From: Aureispira anguillae
GTDB lineage: Bacteria > Bacteroidota > Bacteroidia > Chitinophagales > Saprospiraceae
DNA: 64,000 nucleotides
Direction: 5' to 3'
Assembly: GCF_026000115.1 (NCBI RefSeq)
Contig: NZ_AP026867.1
Coordinates: forward strand, 2,713,716 to 2,777,715
Part shown: positions 20,537 through 29,794 of the stretch, in pieces
How the letters are laid out: the number at the start of each line of letters is the position of its first letter
Position numbering within the stretch: the first letter of the stretch is position 1
Position numbers and translations under genes: made by a program
The notes under the pieces: model-generated
What the model was told of the DNA's origin: nothing
The model's database searches: none
What the model saw: only the letters and a program-made list of their open reading frames with translations

Positions 20537-21712
20537 TTATCCCTTTATTTTTACAATCAAAGCTTGGGTCTCTTCTAAATACTCTCCTGATTTTTGGCTT
20601 AAGATCAATTGTTTTTGGGCAACTTCTAAAGCTGCTTGTTTTTGATCTAGCGCCAATAGAATCATTGCTTTAGTCTCTAAAGTATAAATATTTTCATCCA
20701 ATAAGATAGCACGATCTACCCACTCTAAGGCAGTTTCTAAATGTGTTTTGCTTTTGCCATAAATATCTAGCATGTAACGAGCAATAGCATTTAGGCTTTG
20801 GGAATCCTTGCAATGTTTTTCATACTTTTTAGCTAGGCGATAACTTTGCCGTTCGTTTCCCTTTTTGGCATAAAAATCCATCCTAGTTTTGAAATAATCA
20901 ACACGATTAGGCAAAATTTGCTTTACCTCTTGTAAAAATGCTCGAACAGTTGATTTATCAGATCTATTCTCAATCAACTTATAACATCGAATTTTAAAAG
21001 CTGCATCCAAGTAATTTTCAACTCGTTCGATTCCCAACGAAAGAATAAAATCAGCTTTATTGGCTGCCACATAAAGATAAGCTTCGTGTTTATAATCATT
21101 GACATAGTACTCTAGGAACTCAAAATTAGCCTCTTCGATCAATGCTTCTAAGCTCACTTCACTAATATAGGCGTCAATTACCTTTTGGTAATTTTCTCCA
21201 ACACGCATCAGAGCATGAGCGTATTTTTTTAAGAATTTTGGCTGCTTTTCTCCTGCTTTAAATTTTTTTTGCAAGGTATAAATTTGATGTTCAGGCAATA
21301 GAGCCTCCTTGCTTTTATCAAGCAAATCTTCTGCCTCAAAAGCTCCAATAATTCGATGCACCAGCTCCCCCTCTGTATTAAAATATAATAAAGTGGGATA
21401 GGCTGTCACTTGGTACTTTGCAGCAAAACTAGCGCCTTCTTCTCCTTCTACATCCAATTTGTAACTAATATAGTGTTCGTTAAAAAATGCTCCAACCTCT
21501 TCTTTTGAAAAAACATTATGATTCATCCACTTACAAGGTTCACACCAAGAAGCATAAGTATCAACAAAGATTGGCAAATTAGAACTTTTGGCCTTGGCTT
21601 TTACCGCCGACCAATCTCCTTGTTCAAAATGGATACCTTGTGCATTAGAAAATAGAGGGAATAATAGTATAAGTGGGAGTAACAGTAGGGAAAAAAGATA
21701 GAACTTTATCAT
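20537..21712 (-). CDS. secreted thioredoxin-fold protein (WCEPC active site) with a C-terminal helical/TPR-like domain
   Basis: A signal peptide is present. The CxxC motif ASWCEPCKW lies in a thioredoxin-like context. Confidence 0.6.
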   Translation of the reverse strand: MIKFYLFSLLLLPLILLFPLFSNAQGIHFEQGDWSAVKAKAKSSNLPIFVDTYASWCEPCKWMNHNVFSKEEVGAFFNEHYISYKLDVEGEEGASFAAKYQVTAYPTLLYFNTEGELVHRIIGAFEAEDLLDKSKEALLPEHQIYTLQKKFKAGEKQPKFLKKYAHALMRVGENYQKVIDAYISEVSLEALIEEANFEFLEYYVNDYKHEAYLYVAANKADFILSLGIERVENYLDAAFKIRCYKLIENRSDKSTVRAFLQEVKQILPNRVDYFKTRMDFYAKKGNERQSYRLAKKYEKHCKDSQSLNAIARYMLDIYGKSKTHLETALEWVDRAILLDENIYTLETKAMILLALDQKQAALEVAQKQLILSQKSGEYLEETQALIVKIKG

Positions 21713-22200
21713 TTAACTTACTTTTAATACATGTATAAACATCTAATTAGGAATATAACAGCCTGTTCCCTATTTTGTTTTAAGATTCTCGTTTATTTAA
21801 AAGATAAACTGAAGTAGTTAAGCAGAACGAATGCTTGCCAATCTAAAGCGTCTTTTTGCTCCTAATAGTGATGTAAATCAATTCCTTTAGTCCCTTCTAC
21901 TTATAACCATAAAGTAGTAAAACCGTTAAACAAAATGAGCTAAAAATATTGACTATATTTAATCTGCTTAATAGCTATAAACCTCATAAAGTATTCAATA
22001 AAACAGGGAAAGAAATTATTGATTGTTGAATTATTTATTCTGAAAAGGTTAACCTTCGATAACTTAATTCCACACATTTAATAGGTAAAAAGTATGAATT
22101 GAAAAATTATTTGAATAATTTTAAAATTAGAATGGCAGTACTAGTAATTCTGTAATCTCAATTACTAAAATTACTATTTCAATATAATATAAAACTACGA

Positions 22201-23472
22201 ATGAAAATAGACAAGTTATACCTCAAAAATTTTAGAAATATTGAAGAAACTCATTATGAATTTCCAACTAATTTTACAGGTATTATTGGAATGAATGGTT
22301 CTGGGAAATCTACTATTTTACATGCACTTAGAGTAGCTGCTGGGGCTTATTTTATGGGTATACCTAACTCCCTAGCAAAAAACAGGCACATTTCTAAGGA
22401 TGAGGTTAGAATGACTAATAATAAAATCGAATTATTTCATCACCCTGTTATTGTTGAAGCAGAAGGACAATTTCCTGAGAATAACGCTCCTATTACTTGG
22501 CGTAGAAGAATACTAAAAGAAGGAGGTAGTAATACATCTTCTGTAGAAGATGTTGGTGCGATTAGAAATCTAGGGAGTGTGAAATATAATAAAATGAAAC
22601 GAGAGGGAACAGATGAACTTGATTTACCTGTAATCGCATATTTTGGAACGAATAGGGTATTTGGATCAGCAAGAAAACGGCAAAAAGCGAGAACTGGTCG
22701 TCAAATATTTAAAGAAGGGTACTACGATTGGCTAGATATGCGTTCATCTACCTATCAATATGCCCAGTGGTTGACAAGCTATGATGCCTTAGTAAAAAAT
22801 GGGAAAGAGTATTCTGAATCAAAGGAAACATTCTTTCAAACGATTAAAACAGCTTGCCCCTATGTTACAGACGTTGATTTTATTAGTGATCGTTTGTGGT
22901 TGCGTACTCAAATGAAGAGTCAAATCTCTGATTTACTCCCCTTGGAATTAAAAAGTGATGGGATTATTACTTTTGTTCAAATGATTGCAGAACTAGCCTA
23001 CCGCTGTATTATTTTAAATGGTTACCTAAAAGAAAAAGCCATTCTACAATCTAAAGGGATTGTCTTAATTGATGAAATTGATTTGCATTTGCATCCCAAA
23101 TGGCAAGAACATGTTGTAAAAGATCTAAAAAAGGCTTTTCCTAATATTCAATTTATTGTTACAACTCATTCTCCCATAATTGTACAAAGCTTGAAAGCTA
23201 ATGAATTAATTAATTTGGATTCGATAGCAGATGTCAATCCCAGCGACTTAACTTTAGGGGAAGTTGTTACTCACATCATGGGAAAAGACAGTGAACATAG
23301 TGAATCTAGTAATCAACAAGAACAATTAAGCAAAGAATATCTAACCCTCTTAAAACATCATTCTCTAGATGCTATTTCTGAACATTTAAATCAGATTGAG
23401 TTTAAGATTATAGATCCTTCTGTGAGGGCATTCTTAAAAATGCAGCGATTAGAAAAAAGAAGCAATAAATAA
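22201..23472 (+). CDS. AAA_15/AAA_21 (ABC-type) ATPase without a TOPRIM domain. It is PtuA-like (Septu defence system ATPase).
   Basis: Walker A is GMNGSGKST (aa 30-38). Walker B/D-loop is VLIDEIDLHLHP. The H-loop is TTHSP. Only about 100 aa follow the H-loop, so there is no nuclease domain. The gene is immediately followed by an HNH gene. Confidence 0.7.
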   Translation: MKIDKLYLKNFRNIEETHYEFPTNFTGIIGMNGSGKSTILHALRVAAGAYFMGIPNSLAKNRHISKDEVRMTNNKIELFHHPVIVEAEGQFPENNAPITWRRRILKEGGSNTSSVEDVGAIRNLGSVKYNKMKREGTDELDLPVIAYFGTNRVFGSARKRQKARTGRQIFKEGYYDWLDMRSSTYQYAQWLTSYDALVKNGKEYSESKETFFQTIKTACPYVTDVDFISDRLWLRTQMKSQISDLLPLELKSDGIITFVQMIAELAYRCIILNGYLKEKAILQSKGIVLIDEIDLHLHPKWQEHVVKDLKKAFPNIQFIVTTHSPIIVQSLKANELINLDSIADVNPSDLTLGEVVTHIMGKDSEHSESSNQQEQLSKEYLTLLKHHSLDAISEHLNQIEFKIIDPSVRAFLKMQRLEKRSNK

Positions 23473-23499
23473 CCCTATAAAACTCATAAATATTATTTT

Positions 23500-24249
23500 A
23501 TGCGACCTATAGAAAGAGGAAACATCCCCAGAGATGATAATGATCAAATTATTACTGTTAGCAACCATCGTCAATGGAGAAAACATCTTATTGATAGAAT
23601 TGGAAAGTATTGTTCTTACTGCGAAATGGCTCTCTATGACAGCCCCCAAGTAGAGCATGTTATAGCACAAAACATAGATTCCTCTCGCAATCTTGATTGG
23701 GACAATTTGGTTCTAGCTTGTGGTCCTTGTAACAGAACAAAAAGTAATACTCCTTGTCCTCCTGAAACGCATTATTTACCTGATATTCACAATACATATC
23801 TAGCTTTTGGGCATTATCTAGGCAACAATACAAAAACTGGTGAGCCTGCTGCTTATATAACTACAAAATCATCATCCCATTCCCTAATGCAAATCGATAA
23901 GGCTATTAATACTATTAATTTATGTGGTCTTAACAAAGATACTAGTTCAGATGTGAGAACAGCATGTGACTTTAGGTGGAAATATCGCCTTGAAGCGATT
24001 ACTTCTGCCCTATTATGGAAACAAAAATGGGATGACTGGGGATCTCACAGTCATAGTCAAGATTTTATAAATCTATTATGTGATGCTGCTTTAGGAAAAG
24101 GCTTCTTTTCTATTTGGTTTTATATTTTTGAAGCAGAACCTAGTATTAAAAAATCTTTAATTGAAGCTTTCCCTAATACAGCATTAGATTGTTTTGATTC
24201 TAGTAATGACTACAACCCAGTGGCAAGAAATGCACCTGATGATATCTAA
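23500..24249 (+). CDS. HNH endonuclease. It is PtuB-like (Septu defence nuclease) with a ~170 aa C-terminal extension.
   Basis: The HNH motif is CSYCEMAL...VEHVIAQ...NLVLACGPCNRTKSN: a paired C-x2-C zinc knuckle, with His/Asn spaced as in HNH. The gene starts 27 bp after the ATPase stop on the same strand. Confidence 0.7.
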   Translation: MRPIERGNIPRDDNDQIITVSNHRQWRKHLIDRIGKYCSYCEMALYDSPQVEHVIAQNIDSSRNLDWDNLVLACGPCNRTKSNTPCPPETHYLPDIHNTYLAFGHYLGNNTKTGEPAAYITTKSSSHSLMQIDKAINTINLCGLNKDTSSDVRTACDFRWKYRLEAITSALLWKQKWDDWGSHSHSQDFINLLCDAALGKGFFSIWFYIFEAEPSIKKSLIEAFPNTALDCFDSSNDYNPVARNAPDDI

Positions 24250-24411
24250 AACTACAATTTATATCCTAAAATTGTTTAAAACTATACCTATCCGTCATTC
24301 CTCCATCAATCATCATTTCACATACTTGACAAACTAATAGCTTTCTTAAAAGCCCTCTCATATAACTATACTATATTTTCTTTCACTTTAAAACGTTAAC
24401 AAAAAGTTAAA

Positions 24412-24427
24412 AACAGACAAGTCTGTT
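24412..24427. promoter_or_regulatory. palindromic TetR-type operator AACAGAC-AA-GTCTGTT, 33 bp upstream of the tetR start (copy 1 of 3)
   Basis: 7-bp inverted arms with a 2-bp spacer. Near-identical copies lie at 25048-25065 and 25107-25124. Confidence 0.45.
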
Positions 24428-24459
24428 CTAATTGCAATCAAATTATATACATTTACAAT

Positions 24460-25020
24460 ATGAAAAAAACAAGTGTAAAAAATAGAATTATAGAAACAGC
24501 CTCCACACTGTTCTATCACAATGGATACAATCAAACAGGAATCAACCAAATCATTGCAGAAGCTGGCGTTTCCAAGTCTGGTATGTACCAACACTTCCGA
24601 TCAAAAGAAGATATTGCGGTTGCCTATTTGATTCGAAGACATAGCCTGTGGTTTGGCGACTTGTTTGATTTTATTGCTGACCAAAAATCCATAAAAGCCA
24701 AAATCCTAGCCGCTTTTGACTATTTAGATAGCTGGCTCAGTCAGGTTAGTTTTAGAGGCTGTGGCTTTCAAAATATTTTTATTGATTTGCCCAAAGACCA
24801 ACAAAAAATCAAAGATCAAGTTTTATTACACAAAAACGAATTGCGTGCTTGGCTCCATGGTTTATTAAATACAGAAGCACTGTATACCACAGAGGAAGCT
24901 ATTAAATTGGGTGATGAAATCTTAGTATTAATAGAGGGCGCCATCATCCTTTCTCAAATACAACATAATAATTGGCCCATTATTACAGCCAAAAATACGT
25001 GTAAAAAATTACTACTCTAA
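24460..25020 (+). CDS. TetR/AcrR family transcriptional regulator
   Basis: The N-terminal HTH signature is IIETASTLFYHNGYNQTGINQIIAEAGVSKSGMYQHFRSKEDI. Confidence 0.8.
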   Translation: MKKTSVKNRIIETASTLFYHNGYNQTGINQIIAEAGVSKSGMYQHFRSKEDIAVAYLIRRHSLWFGDLFDFIADQKSIKAKILAAFDYLDSWLSQVSFRGCGFQNIFIDLPKDQQKIKDQVLLHKNELRAWLHGLLNTEALYTTEEAIKLGDEILVLIEGAIILSQIQHNNWPIITAKNTCKKLLL

Positions 25021-25047
25021 TTGTGTAATTTTTTTTCGTCAAAAAAA

Positions 25048-25065
25048 GAACAGACTTGTCTGTAC
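25048..25065. promoter_or_regulatory. operator copy 2 (GAACAGACTTGTCTGTAC) between tetR and the downstream gene
   Basis: It has the same 15-bp core as copy 1, in inverted orientation. Confidence 0.45.
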
Positions 25066-25106
25066 TATTTTTTTTTAATGTCACAATATATTTTTCACTC
25101 AAAACA

Positions 25107-25124
25107 AACAGACTTCTCTGTACA
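25107..25124. promoter_or_regulatory. operator copy 3 (AAACAGACTTCTCTGTAC), one mismatch from copy 2. It ends 10 bp upstream of the ATG at 25135.
   Basis: It is a one-substitution variant of copy 2. Confidence 0.4.
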
Positions 25125-25134
25125 ATATTTAATT

Positions 25135-25557
25135 ATGAAAAATCTAATACCACCTTTTACCAAAGAAACAGCAACAGCAAAAGTTCAAGCAGCAGAAGAT
25201 GCTTGGAACAGTAAAGACCCTCATAAGGTTTCTTTGGCTTACACCGTTGACTCTCAATGGAGAAATAGAGGGCAGTTTTTTACAGGTAGAACGGCCATTG
25301 TAGAATTTCTAACAGACAAATGGAAAAAAGAACAACATTACAAATTAAAAAAGCACCTATGGTCCTATACCGACAATAGAATTTCGGTTCGCTTTGAATA
25401 TGAATGGCAAAACCCAGAAACAGGACAATGGATGCGTACCCATGGAAATGAACACTGGGAATTTGATAAGGCAGGGAAAATGCAGGTCAGAGACATGAGT
25501 GCCAATGACATTAGAATAAAGGAATCTGACAGAAAATTTAAATCATCATCTTTTTAA
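25135..25557 (+). CDS. DUF1348 / SnoaL-like (NTF2 fold) protein. The track ORF is trimmed to the Met at 25135, because the upstream part translates the operator region.
   Basis: The sequence [29 protein letters not shown]...[11 protein letters not shown] follows the DUF1348 pattern. Confidence 0.6.
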
Positions 25558-25566
25558 TAAAACAAA

Positions 25567-26451
25567 ATGACAACATCTATCCAAACTCAAGCCACACTCC
25601 ACCAAACAATTGAGGTAAGTGGCATCAATTTATTTTATAGAGAAGCAGGAAATCCCGATAAGCCAACTCTTGTATTGTTACACGGTTATCCTACCTCCTC
25701 CCATATGTTTCGCAATTTAATTGATCGGTTGGCCAACCAATATCATATCCTCGCTCCCGATTATCCTGGTTTTGGGAGAAGTGAACAACCTCCAATCAAA
25801 GATTTTGACTATAGCTTTGAGCATATGGCAATTATAATTGAAGATTTTTTAGCAAAAAAAGCGATAAACCAATACAGTTTATACCTAATGGATTATGGTG
25901 CTCCAATCGGGTTTAGAATTGCCTCAAAATATCCAGATCGAATTGAGTCTTTGATTATTCAAAATGGAAATGCCTATGAAGAAGGTTTAGCTGACTTTTG
26001 GGTTCCCATCAAAAAATATTGGGCTGATTATACCTTAGCCAATGGAAAACCCTTAGAAGCCTTCCATGCTCTAGACGGCTTAATATGGCAATACACACAT
26101 GGCGTACAAGATGTTTCTAAAATTAGCCCAGACAACTGGCACCTAGATTTACAACACTTGAGCAGACCAGAGAATAATGAAATTCAGCTCGCCATGTTTT
26201 ATGATTATAGAACCAATGTTCCATTATACCCCAAATGGCAGCAATATTTTAGAGAGCATCAACCCCCAACCTTGATTGTCTGGGGAAAAAATGATTATAT
26301 ATTTCCGCCTGAAGGAGCACATCCCTATAAAAGAGACTTAGAAAAGGCTGAAATTCACCTATTAGACACAGGGCATTTCGCTCTAGAAGAAAAAGGCCAT
26401 GAAATAGCAAACTACATTTTGACGTTTTTAAAAAAGCATAAAATTAGCTAA
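25567..26451 (+). CDS. alpha/beta-hydrolase, epoxide hydrolase/haloalkane dehalogenase-like
   Basis: HGYPTSSHMFRNLI (HGxP oxyanion motif), a nucleophile elbow region, and a C-terminal His are present. Confidence 0.7.
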   Translation: MTTSIQTQATLHQTIEVSGINLFYREAGNPDKPTLVLLHGYPTSSHMFRNLIDRLANQYHILAPDYPGFGRSEQPPIKDFDYSFEHMAIIIEDFLAKKAINQYSLYLMDYGAPIGFRIASKYPDRIESLIIQNGNAYEEGLADFWVPIKKYWADYTLANGKPLEAFHALDGLIWQYTHGVQDVSKISPDNWHLDLQHLSRPENNEIQLAMFYDYRTNVPLYPKWQQYFREHQPPTLIVWGKNDYIFPPEGAHPYKRDLEKAEIHLLDTGHFALEEKGHEIANYILTFLKKHKIS

Positions 26452-26637
26452 ACTAAGCATAAAAATAGCATCGTTTAAACAATCAAAGAGAGGCATCGGA
26501 TTATTCCGCTTGTCTCTTTCTGTTAATTAGAAACTTACTAAGCCATTTAGAATGAACATTTAAAGCGAGTCTCTGTTGAAGAAGTGAAATAATTTTATAG
26601 TTTTACCATCCACAATAACCAACATCACTATATATTT

Positions 26638-27986: not shown

Positions 27987-28832
27987 TCAAATTTGTTGAA
28001 AATCCATGCTATAGTGCGTTCCTTTTTTAGAGTTGTCTCGTTTAATTTCTCCCAATAACTGGATCGATAAATTTTTAATAATTTTTAACCCAAGGGAATT
28101 GCTAGTTCTAAAATTTATAGTTGGAGAATAACCAGTACCATAGTCGCCAATTTCTAAGCTTAAGTTAGGGGGCGTCAACTTCTTGATTTTTACATATAAG
28201 ATCCCTTTGTTTTTATCTTTGTAGCCATATTTTAATGAATTGGTAAAACATTCATTAATCAGTAAGCCCAAAGGGATAATAGTATCAATATTTAGCTCGA
28301 TATTTTGGGTCTCTATTCTCAATTCAAAATCACAATCTTTTCCTTTCATAGAATCCAGCAATAACCCTAAAAGCTTTTCGAGGTAATTTTGTAGATTAAT
28401 CGTTGCCAAATTATCATCCTGATATAAAATTTCATGAACAATGGCCATTGAATTAATCCTATATTGGCAATGCTGAAATAACTCTTTGATATGCTCATCA
28501 GGAATAAAACTAGACTGCAACCCCAATAAACTTGTTATAATTTGAAGGTTATTTTTAACTCTATGATGGACTTCTTTCAGCAAGATTTCTTTTTCTCTTA
28601 GTGAAAGACTAACTCGTTCCTTTTCTTTTAAATATTCTTGATTTAGAATGGTATTTTTGGTGATTAAAAAGGCAATTAAAATACCTAAAAAAGTTGGTAA
28701 GATAAAAAAGCTAAAACTGATACTTTGCTTGATAAAAAAAAGTACATTTATTGCCCCAATGACATAAAAGGTCCCCAATACAATAAGGACATTCCTTAAG
28801 AAAAGATTATTGTAGTTTTTCAAGAATTTCAT
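27987..28832 (-). CDS. membrane sensor histidine kinase (HisKA_2/HWE-like) with no adjacent response regulator
   Basis: Two N-terminal TM helices are followed by the H-box [20 protein letters not shown] and a C-terminal HATPase_c-like region. Confidence 0.7.
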
Positions 28833-28885: not shown

Positions 28886-29794
28886 CTAATATAATGCTGT
28901 ATTATTTCCTATAATTTGAAAAAAGAACCGAGCAGGACGTATTTCTTGCCCTTCTTGATATAAGTATTGTTCACCATTTAAATCAATCATAGGAATATGA
29001 GGATCTGTCAATAAAAACGAATCGTGAATCAGTTTGTTTTGAAATGTGTTTCTAATTTGATCGGCATCAATACCTATAGAAGCTCCTAAGTATTGCCCGT
29101 ATCCTAATGATTGTTCTACTTGAACGGCTAAAACGCCTGCACTATTGGCTTGATATAATACTCCATCCATCAAACGATAGCCATATTTTGCGGGAAATTG
29201 CTTTGACTTCATGGTTTTACTTTTTGGTCCATAGGGATCTGCTGTCCAAGCAATATTAACTAGTCCTATCTGTGTATTTTTTATTCTATAATAAAGCCCC
29301 ATTGCACCTGTTCGGTGTTTGTCCTCTTGCAAAAATGCCAGAAAGTCATTTTCCATCAATAAGCTAAATCCATAAATTCCAAACCCAAAGGTTCCTGTCA
29401 ATTGAGAAGTTTTGACGTTATCCAAATAAAAATTGTAACTATATCCTATTGAATAAGGGCGACTAGTTTGGTTACTCACTTCATTGATAAATGGACTATA
29501 ATAGCTGGAATCCTTTATGCCAAAAGTAGCAACAAGCCCCAAACGTAGTTGTCCCTCCCAAGAAGGGATTCCCATAGGAAAGGTGCGAGCATTGTAATAG
29601 GCACTAAACTGAACATTCGTTTGAATATGTTCATAATGATAAAACAACTTGGCAATAAGCCCAATTCGATTAAAATGACTCCCTAAGTTAAACGATAAAC
29701 CAATCTGCCCCCCAAAGCCCTCCGCAAAATTTAATTGAGCGGTTGTTATAGTACTCGTAAAGCAAATTGTAAGCAATAAAAAAAACTGTTTCAT
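28886..29794 (-). CDS. hypothetical secreted/outer-membrane protein
   Basis: A signal peptide is present. The protein is Gly/Tyr-rich with a beta-strand pattern. Confidence 0.45.
   Translation of the reverse strand: MKQFFLLLTICFTSTITTAQLNFAEGFGGQIGLSFNLGSHFNRIGLIAKLFYHYEHIQTNVQFSAYYNARTFPMGIPSWEGQLRLGLVATFGIKDSSYYSPFINEVSNQTSRPYSIGYSYNFYLDNVKTSQLTGTFGFGIYGFSLLMENDFLAFLQEDKHRTGAMGLYYRIKNTQIGLVNIAWTADPYGPKSKTMKSKQFPAKYGYRLMDGVLYQANSAGVLAVQVEQSLGYGQYLGASIGIDADQIRNTFQNKLIHDSFLLTDPHIPMIDLNGEQYLYQEGQEIRPARFFFQIIGNNTALY

Follow-up and report, generated by a model that had tools for sequence, protein, structure and literature searches.

Layout of the ptuA–ptuB locus and identity of its products

We examined a 64,000-nt stretch of Aureispira anguillae DNA (contig NZ_AP026867.1 of assembly GCF_026000115.1, positions 2,713,716 to 2,777,715; below, the window), in which two adjacent genes, ptuA and ptuB, encode an ATP-binding cassette (ABC)-type ATPase and an HNH nuclease. 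A preliminary description of this DNA had reported two co-directional open reading frames (ORFs) of 423 and 249 aa lying 27 bp apart, and had recognized in them the PtuA and PtuB proteins of the Septu anti-phage system. We found the two ORFs and the spacing between them exactly as described, and PADLOC profiles, a sequence match in the PDB and Foldseek all agreed on their identity. The exact proteins are named “AAA family ATPase” and “HNH endonuclease signature motif containing protein” (Aureispira anguillae) at NCBI. The genes, their motifs and the adjoining noncoding DNA are as follows:

22201–23472, + strand: ptuA, 423 aa, ATG start; ABC-type (AAA_15/AAA_21/SMC_N) ATPase, very probably the sensor/scaffold subunit of a standalone Septu system
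22288–22314, + strand: PtuA Walker A/P-loop GMNGSGKST, aa 30–38, including K36
22954–22962, + strand: PtuA ABC signature SDG, aa 252–254, next residue Ile
23059–23097, + strand: PtuA Walker B IVLIDE (aa 287–292) and D-loop IDLHLHP (aa 293–299)
23161–23175, + strand: PtuA H-loop TTHSP, aa 321–325
23221–23469, + strand: PtuA C-terminal extension, aa 341–423; helices 352–359, 365–386, 389–402 and 406–421 (AlphaFold2 model)
23473–23499, + strand: ptuA–ptuB spacer, 27 bp; no terminator found in a scan
23500–24249, + strand: ptuB, 249 aa, ATG start; HNH nuclease, very probably the Septu effector subunit
23611–23745, + strand: PtuB HNH active site and zinc-binding cysteines, C38xxC41, E52-H53, W67-D-N69, C74xxC77, N78 and K81
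23974–24168, + strand: PtuB helical C-terminal domain, aa 159–223; helices 159–181, 186–200, 203–209 and 214–223 (model)
21713–22200, no strand assigned: upstream noncoding region, 488 bp, GC 25.4%, between the divergent thioredoxin-like gene and ptuA

All of the ATPase and HNH motifs that had been quoted for the two proteins are present at their sites, and they are strongly conserved. Among 47 PtuA homologues, G30, G35, K36 and S37 of Walker A, I290, D291, E292, D294, H298 and P299 of Walker B and the D-loop, and T321, H323 and P325 of the H-loop were invariant. A Pfam search of PtuA returned AAA_15, AAA_21, SMC_N and AAA_23, with no TOPRIM and no other nuclease domain, in keeping with the earlier remark that the ATPase lacks TOPRIM. 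The best PADLOC match was the PtuA1 model PDLC00278 (E = 3.5e-100), which aligned aa 1–421 with profile positions 1–434 of 436, and behind it many more PtuA1 models of PADLOC-DB matched as well. In the PDB, the best sequence match was 8ee4_A, the PtuA of a standalone Escherichia coli Septu system (E = 4.9e-40), ahead of the PtuAs of retrons. An AlphaFold2 (AF2) model built on 47 homologues (predicted local distance difference test score, pLDDT, 90.3; predicted template modeling score, pTM, 0.83) consisted only of an ABC core and C-terminal helices. When this model was compared with the PDB using Foldseek, ranks 1–11 were all E. coli Septu PtuA chains, with retron PtuAs next, and the top match (8eea_D; E = 2.3e-24, template modeling (TM) score 0.76) extended over 472 columns that included the C-terminal helices. 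The suggestion that the ATPase lies at the short end for PtuA was not borne out: a search for homologues returned 6,437 proteins at E ≤ 0.001, and the best 120 of these measured 378–458 aa, most of them 412–437 aa, so that 423 aa is a typical length; several PADLOC PtuA1 models are likewise 421–443 positions long.

The nuclease motifs of PtuB read CSYC (aa 38–41), EH (52–53), WDN (67–69), CGPC (74–77) and CNRTKS (77–82), and within them C38, C41, E52, H53, W67, N69, C74, N78 and K81 were invariant in 42 PtuB homologues. The Pfam HNH domain (PF01844) covers aa 38–83, the 46-residue core only, and P94, N98, G201, W206 and F210, all beyond that core, were invariant in the same 42 proteins. The PADLOC PtuB1 model PDLC00315 aligned aa 1–241 with profile positions 1–221 of 227 (E = 1.3e-56). 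Searched by sequence against the PDB, PtuB gave only weak matches, to the HNH domain of Cas9 and to a single PtuB chain (E = 1e-3), and for this reason its kinship to solved PtuB proteins was established from a structure model. The AF2 model, built on 42 homologues (pLDDT 94, pTM 0.90), formed one confident body. Foldseek ranks 1–9 were all PtuB chains, eight from retron Ec78/Eco7 and one from E. coli Septu (8eea_G), aligned over 211–246 columns; the fold matches that came next, to the HNH domain of Cas9, spanned just 80 columns. In retron-Eco7, PtuB is made up of a nuclease domain of the HNH type, ~150 residues long, and a helical C-terminal domain (CTD) of ~65 residues, the latter sandwiched by two PtuA C-terminal domains (PMC12673091). 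What had been taken for a ~170-aa extension of the HNH protein devoid of any motif is accordingly the rest of the PtuB HNH domain plus the helical CTD (PMC12673091, PMC12819146), and it is conserved.

By sequence profile as well as by fold, the two proteins are thus members of the PtuA and PtuB families. The proposal of a divergent or undescribed Septu variant had to be dropped, as PADLOC PtuA1 and PtuB1 models cover the two proteins from end to end; the pair is a routine further example of Septu, already detected by profiles from 2023. As a finding, one more profile-detectable instance in Aureispira anguillae (Saprospiraceae) carries little weight, although it corrects the idea that a short PtuA, or the non-HNH two-thirds of PtuB, marks a new variant.

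The spacer without a terminator is consistent with ptuA and ptuB forming a single operon, and the 488-bp region upstream of ptuA presumably contains its promoter. This region had been described as ~490 bp of AT-rich DNA in an intergenic pocket; it does have about that length and a low GC content (0.254), but the pocket is ordinary, since the other intergenic gaps in the window have GC contents of 0.23–0.35. The only ORFs with an ATG start in it are two small ones (28 and 45 aa). Rfam returned no RNA family match in the whole window at the gathering threshold, and at a permissive E-value it returned only one chance microRNA match (E = 0.73) within 21650–24500. The 301 nt upstream of ptuA folded no better than shuffled sequences (z = -0.13), and the 488-bp region showed no similarity to the DNA upstream of eight other PtuA loci. 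We therefore found no evidence of an RNA gene in this region. A scan for sigma-70-like promoters and terminators gave the same counts as shuffled sequences, with a tool that does not include Bacteroidota promoters, and a search for TAnnTTTG upstream of ptuA found none.

The standalone Septu reading and its alternatives

We consider it highly probable that A. anguillae has in this pair an anti-phage system of the standalone (type I) Septu kind. The standalone type is indicated because there is no reverse transcriptase (RT), noncoding RNA (ncRNA), TOPRIM domain or third gene; across the ten ATPase–HNH loci compared, no third neighboring gene was conserved. The remaining features of standalone Septu are present as well, namely full-length PtuA and PtuB profile matches, adjacent and co-directional genes in the order ptuA then ptuB, intact motifs, and both helical docking elements, with the PtuA C-terminal extension and the PtuB CTD each covered by the alignments to 8eea chains. 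The extension is predicted to be the docking site for PtuB (PMC12819146), and the PtuB CTD to bind the PtuA extensions (PMC12819146, PMC12673091). Residues equivalent to those essential in E. coli are present and family-invariant in both PtuA (K36, D291, E292 and H323) and PtuB (H53, N69 and N78).

The ATPase-then-HNH pair also recurred in all nine of the other loci we examined, each time in a different neighborhood, in Bacteroidota metagenomes, Sphingobacterium and the Bacillota genus Halalkalibacter; it is a conserved, mobile two-gene module. Around the closest PtuA relatives listed (L023 1–11208 and L024 1–11214; 72–77% identical), the gene order is HsdM-HsdS-McrB-McrC-PtuA-PtuB-HsdR, a compact composite defense operon in which Septu sits between the specificity/McrBC genes and the HsdR of a type I restriction-modification (R-M) system. 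Of the contextual evidence for a defense role, this R-M/McrBC setting of the relatives is the strongest.

Among characterized systems, the nearest is the standalone E. coli Septu PtuAB (8EE4, 8EE7, 8EEA, 8SUX; Li et al. 2024, as cited in PMC12640716 and PMC12819146). It resembles the Aureispira pair in being a two-gene operon of an ABC ATPase followed by an HNH protein with no RT or ncRNA, in having a PtuA with a helical C-terminal extension, a hydrophobic residue after SDG and no coiled-coil insert or N-terminal domain, and in having a PtuB composed of an HNH domain and a helical CTD. It differs in length (PtuA 465 vs. 423 aa; PtuB 234 modeled residues in 8eea_G vs. 249 aa), and the pair described here comes from a Bacteroidota host. 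In the alignment, the residue after SDG is Leu in E. coli Septu PtuA 8ee4 and Ile both here and in the family consensus; according to PMC12819146, this position is held by Leu in the E. coli Septu PtuA, which is inactive as an ATPase, and by Gln in the PtuA of retrons, which is active. By comparison, the hydrophobic Ile weakly suggests that PtuA here is an ATP-binding sensor rather than a motor. Septu EcB88 is likewise a standalone ptuA–ptuB pair, and the Walker A/B and HNH residues essential to it are conserved here (PMC13096335).

Retron type I-A/type II Septu systems (Retron-Eco7/Ec78 and Retron-Eco4/Ec83) have homologous PtuA and PtuB folds and share the same docking mode of C-terminal extension (CTE) on CTD (PMC12819146), which is predicted here; unlike the Aureispira pair, they include an RT and a multicopy single-stranded DNA (msDNA) antitoxin, and their PtuA has an N-terminal domain and a coiled-coil/helical flap and hydrolyzes ATP. 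PARIS (AriA/AriB) and Gabija (GajA/GajB) are alike in that a nuclease, either bound or fused, is under the control of an oligomeric ABC ATPase (PMC12065111). Here, by contrast, the nuclease is an HNH protein that is predicted to be clamped by the C-terminal extensions of the ATPase, and profile scores favor PtuA over PARIS and Gabija by more than 75 orders of magnitude. The nucleases of PARIS and Gabija are of the TOPRIM type.

If the Aureispira proteins behave as their homologues do, PtuA would dimerize through its ABC head and then assemble further (PMC12640716), as in the 6:2 PtuA:PtuB complex of E. coli, and two PtuA C-terminal extensions would clamp one PtuB CTD, in the CTE–CTD clamp described in PMC12819146 and PMC12065111. 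In healthy cells, ATP-bound PtuA would hold the HNH nuclease inactive (PMC12673091); infection would lift this inhibition through a drop in ATP and/or a phage protein trigger (according to PMC12819146, sensitization by a phage tail fiber), and the freed PtuB would cut nucleic acid, stopping phage production while host growth is arrested. For E. coli Septu, the 6:2 complex, inhibition by ATP and DNA cleavage have been reported (PMC12640716, PMC12673091). Septu EcB88 instead cleaves tRNA-Tyr, in the variable loop and upon T-even phage infection, with an abortive-infection-like phenotype, and its Walker A/B and HNH residues are essential for immunity (PMC13096335).

Several points weigh against reading the pair as a standalone Septu system. 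Identity to the characterized E. coli proteins is low in structural alignments (~22–27% for PtuA and ~16% for PtuB), and the PtuB fold matches are moderate (TM 0.44–0.65, root-mean-square deviation 6–7 Å), which may reflect a different orientation between the domains. The locus also lies outside a defense island, next to a TetR regulon, a MATE pump and housekeeping genes. We infer the defense function of the Aureispira pair from its homology to the E. coli systems. Characterized PtuAB systems vary in both substrate (DNA or tRNA) and trigger, so that neither, the EcB88 target included, can be carried over to the Aureispira pair.

That the two proteins might be the effectors of a retron (type II Septu, retron I-A), with an RT and msDNA nearby or lost, is suggested by NCBIfam, whose only PtuA and PtuB models are retron Ec78 equivalogs and are the top matches of both proteins, as well as by the retron PtuB chains that head the structural matches of the PtuB model. 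The NCBIfam scores nevertheless fall far below their cut-offs (168 vs. 500 bits for NF041760, PtuA; 37 vs. 150 bits for NF041761, PtuB), neither flank contains an RT ORF (a thioredoxin-like gene lies upstream and TetR downstream), and the 488 bp of upstream DNA is unstructured and unconserved and matched nothing in Rfam. At 423 aa, PtuA is also shorter than the retron PtuAs in the PDB (542–552 aa, plus one 456-aa construct), which have an N-terminal domain and a coiled-coil insert that are not found in Septu PtuA (PMC12673091), and the standalone E. coli PtuA ranks above every retron PtuA chain in the sequence comparison as well as in the fold comparison. A role as retron effectors is thus very unlikely; the Aureispira locus is of the majority, standalone Septu type, retron-linked PtuAB (type II Septu) making up about 7.6% of Septu systems (PMC12640716).

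Other families that join an ABC ATPase to a nuclease (PARIS AriAB, Gabija, OLD, Menshen and MADS) share the ABC fold, and models of AriA, GajA, OLD, MAD3 and Rad50/SMC did give weak matches to the N-terminal part of the ATPase. The partner domains to be expected in such systems are TOPRIM (TOPRIM/DUF4435) for AriB, a helicase for Gabija and a PIN nuclease for Menshen. The partner here is an HNH protein and not AriB, the separate nuclease subunit of PARIS (PMC12065111), Pfam found no TOPRIM domain fused to the ATPase, the AriA model scored E = 2.9e-24 against 3.5e-100 for PtuA, and MAD3 reached 37 bits against a cut-off of 420, so that membership in any of these families has very little chance of being correct. 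Matches to SMC_N and AAA_23 in Pfam and N-terminal matches to RecF, RecN and Rad50 might also point to a housekeeping repair ATPase (RecF/RecN/SbcC-like) beside a selfish homing HNH endonuclease with which it shares no function. The RecF, RecN and Rad50 matches span only the first ~45–110 residues, however, and the curated cut-offs were not reached by RecF (42.6 vs. 172), RecN (25.7 vs. 408) or SbcC (19.3 vs. 478). [quoted passage not shown] The preliminary description had named a housekeeping ATPase, a core gene pair of host-like composition and a homing or intron-borne HNH gene as outcomes that would undo the Septu assignment, and none of the three is what we found. Finally, a genuine PtuAB might serve mainly as an addiction or stabilization module for the 4.9-kb insert in which it lies, or be silent or decaying, rather than act in defense. 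Its position outside a defense island, the unrelated TetR regulon in the same insert, the toxicity of released PtuAB in E. coli (PMC12640716) and a scan that identified no terminator or promoter would all fit such a role. We nonetheless regard it as improbable, given that both reading frames are intact and retain every catalytic and family-invariant residue, that an identical protein occurs on contigs from three independent sequencing runs, and that homologues are present in bona fide defense operons.

Covariation of PtuB with the PtuA C-terminal extension

Comparison of the window's PtuA with the clade embedded among R-M genes (P0064-P0070) showed 80–84% identity over aa 1–340 but only 14–28% over aa 341–423. 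In a 15-residue sliding window, identity dropped from 0.93 to 0.33 between residues 316 and 336, and in the AF2 model this break corresponds to the point at which the ABC core ends (strand 336–338) and the C-terminal helices start (352–421). The PtuB partners of the R-M-embedded clade were only 30–34% identical to the window's PtuB. Two other relatives, P0065 and P0071, have bodies 70–74% identical and extensions 54–58% identical to those of the window's PtuA; the PtuB partner of P0071 (L025) was 52% identical to the window's PtuB, and the presumed partner of P0065 (P0003) was 60% identical, a pairing that rests only on the origin of both from a 2,575-bp JGI (Joint Genome Institute) contig.

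The same pattern was seen more widely. The extensions of 116 PtuA homologues fell into three classes of 63, 44 and 9 members, with extension identities of 21–25% and body identities of 56–57% between classes, and 88 of the 415 pairs whose bodies were at least 70% identical had extensions of different classes. On a neighbor-joining tree of the bodies, the class changed 19 times, compared with a minimum possible of 2 and with 42.8 ± 2.5 for shuffled labels; the count of 19 is inflated, because it comes from a simple neighbor-joining tree of a nearly star-like family. A second, independent case was provided by L026 and L027, which share 82% identity in the body, 30% in the extension and 33% in PtuB. 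In Mantel tests over the ten loci, PtuB identity was correlated with extension identity (r = 0.80, p = 0.0003) and not appreciably with body identity (r = 0.16, p = 0.14), a result that stood when the near-duplicate L024 was left out. All of the PtuB partners compared match the same PADLOC PtuB1 model; the PtuB of L026 is shorter, and matched the model only to position 173.

[quoted passage not shown] The Aureispira locus and its closest, R-M/McrBC-embedded relatives may then stand on opposite sides of one such exchange, with the window locus probably keeping the older pairing of extension and PtuB. We found no description of an exchange of extension plus PtuB in PMC12065111, within a limited literature search that is no proof of novelty. 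Joint inheritance of the two parts fits the published docking structure, and could guide experiments with Septu chimeras. If the pattern is real and general, Septu would evolve by swapping a unit made of docking helices and nuclease, and the loci would offer natural chimeras with which to tell the part that sets trigger specificity from the part that sets substrate specificity. It is this module exchange alone that we consider worth following up.

A strain-specific segment and its surroundings

The pair occupies part of a larger insert between two genes of a conserved backbone:

21713–26637, no strand assigned: strain-specific segment, 4.9 kb between the thioredoxin-like (Trx) gene and the MATE gene; contains ptuA, ptuB and a trio of TetR, DUF1348 and alpha/beta-hydrolase genes

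Upstream of the pair lie the divergent Trx gene, ychF and a large protease gene, and downstream lie the genes for TetR, DUF1348, the alpha/beta-hydrolase, a MATE pump, a histidine kinase and others. Using the Trx neighbor as query, we obtained six syntenic loci (L004-L009) from other Aureispira/Saprospiraceae, and compared them with the window proteins by tblastn. The Trx, MATE and Ntox23 genes and a gene encoding a 617-aa protein occur in the same order in all six relatives, and ychF lies beside Trx in four of them. The distance between Trx and MATE is about 230–760 bp by tblastn in the relatives, whose extracted intergenic stretches measure 251–821 bp, versus 4.9 kb here, and tblastn found none of the five proteins of the insert (PtuA, PtuB, TetR, DUF1348 or the hydrolase) between Trx and MATE in any of the six. 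Because the pair is missing from the syntenic locus in six Aureispira relatives, its horizontal acquisition is supported, and we regard it as an accessory, horizontally acquired cassette that documents a clean presence/absence polymorphism in the conserved ychF-Trx-MATE backbone. The pair had been placed between housekeeping genes, which is true of its upstream side, where ychF and the thioredoxin-like gene are conserved, and not of the TetR cassette, which is itself absent from the relatives.

Horizontal acquisition had also been proposed on compositional grounds, and this part of the case proved weak. Against 44 long ORFs (GC 0.363 ± 0.022), the GC contents of ptuA (0.336, z = -1.2) and ptuB (0.356, z = -0.3) make the claimed AT-richness of the pair marginal; only GC at third codon positions was low (z = -2.2 for ptuA and -2.7 for ptuB), a trait also seen in the core gene ychF (z = -2.0), and the codon-usage distance of both genes was average. 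The window holds no tRNA, and we saw neither direct nor inverted repeats that convincingly bracket the insert, nor an integrase at its junctions, nor a recognizable remnant of the Trx–MATE spacer of the relatives. Matches on sequenced plasmids or phages were distant only, at about 30% identity or lower.

Other Septu loci bear signs of mobility: an IS200-like Y1 transposase gene overlaps the 3′ end of ptuB in L027 (6977–7273), and in Halalkalibacter (L022 84–3269) the pair is flanked by numerous small ORFs, a resolvase and another HNH gene.

The TetR-DUF1348(SnoaL-like)-alpha/beta-hydrolase trio (24460–26451) belongs to the same 4.9-kb variable segment, outside the conserved backbone. Upstream of the TetR gene, at 24413–24429, there is a palindrome, ACAGACAAGTCTGT, which occurs twice more between TetR and DUF1348, in a 51-nt tandem repeat (25047–25063 and ~25105–25119, the second of these copies being imperfect). 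These palindromes are likely candidates for TetR operators. The DUF1348 gene probably starts at the ATG at 25135 and not at the mechanically called TTG at 25021, because the putative operators fall inside the ORF that begins at the TTG; read from 25135, the product matches the Pfam profile over positions 1–130 of 130.

Beyond the MATE gene, a HisKA_2/HWE-type histidine kinase gene (27987–28832, - strand) has the lowest GC content of the neighborhood (0.299, z = -2.9). It was not detected by tblastn between the MATE and Ntox23 genes in any of the six relatives, and is a second small accessory insertion in the region. Next to it, at 28886–29794 (- strand), is the gene for an Ntox23 (polymorphic toxin) domain protein of 302 aa, found at the same position in all six relatives with 44–77% identity, a degree of positional conservation that is unusual for a toxin-type domain.

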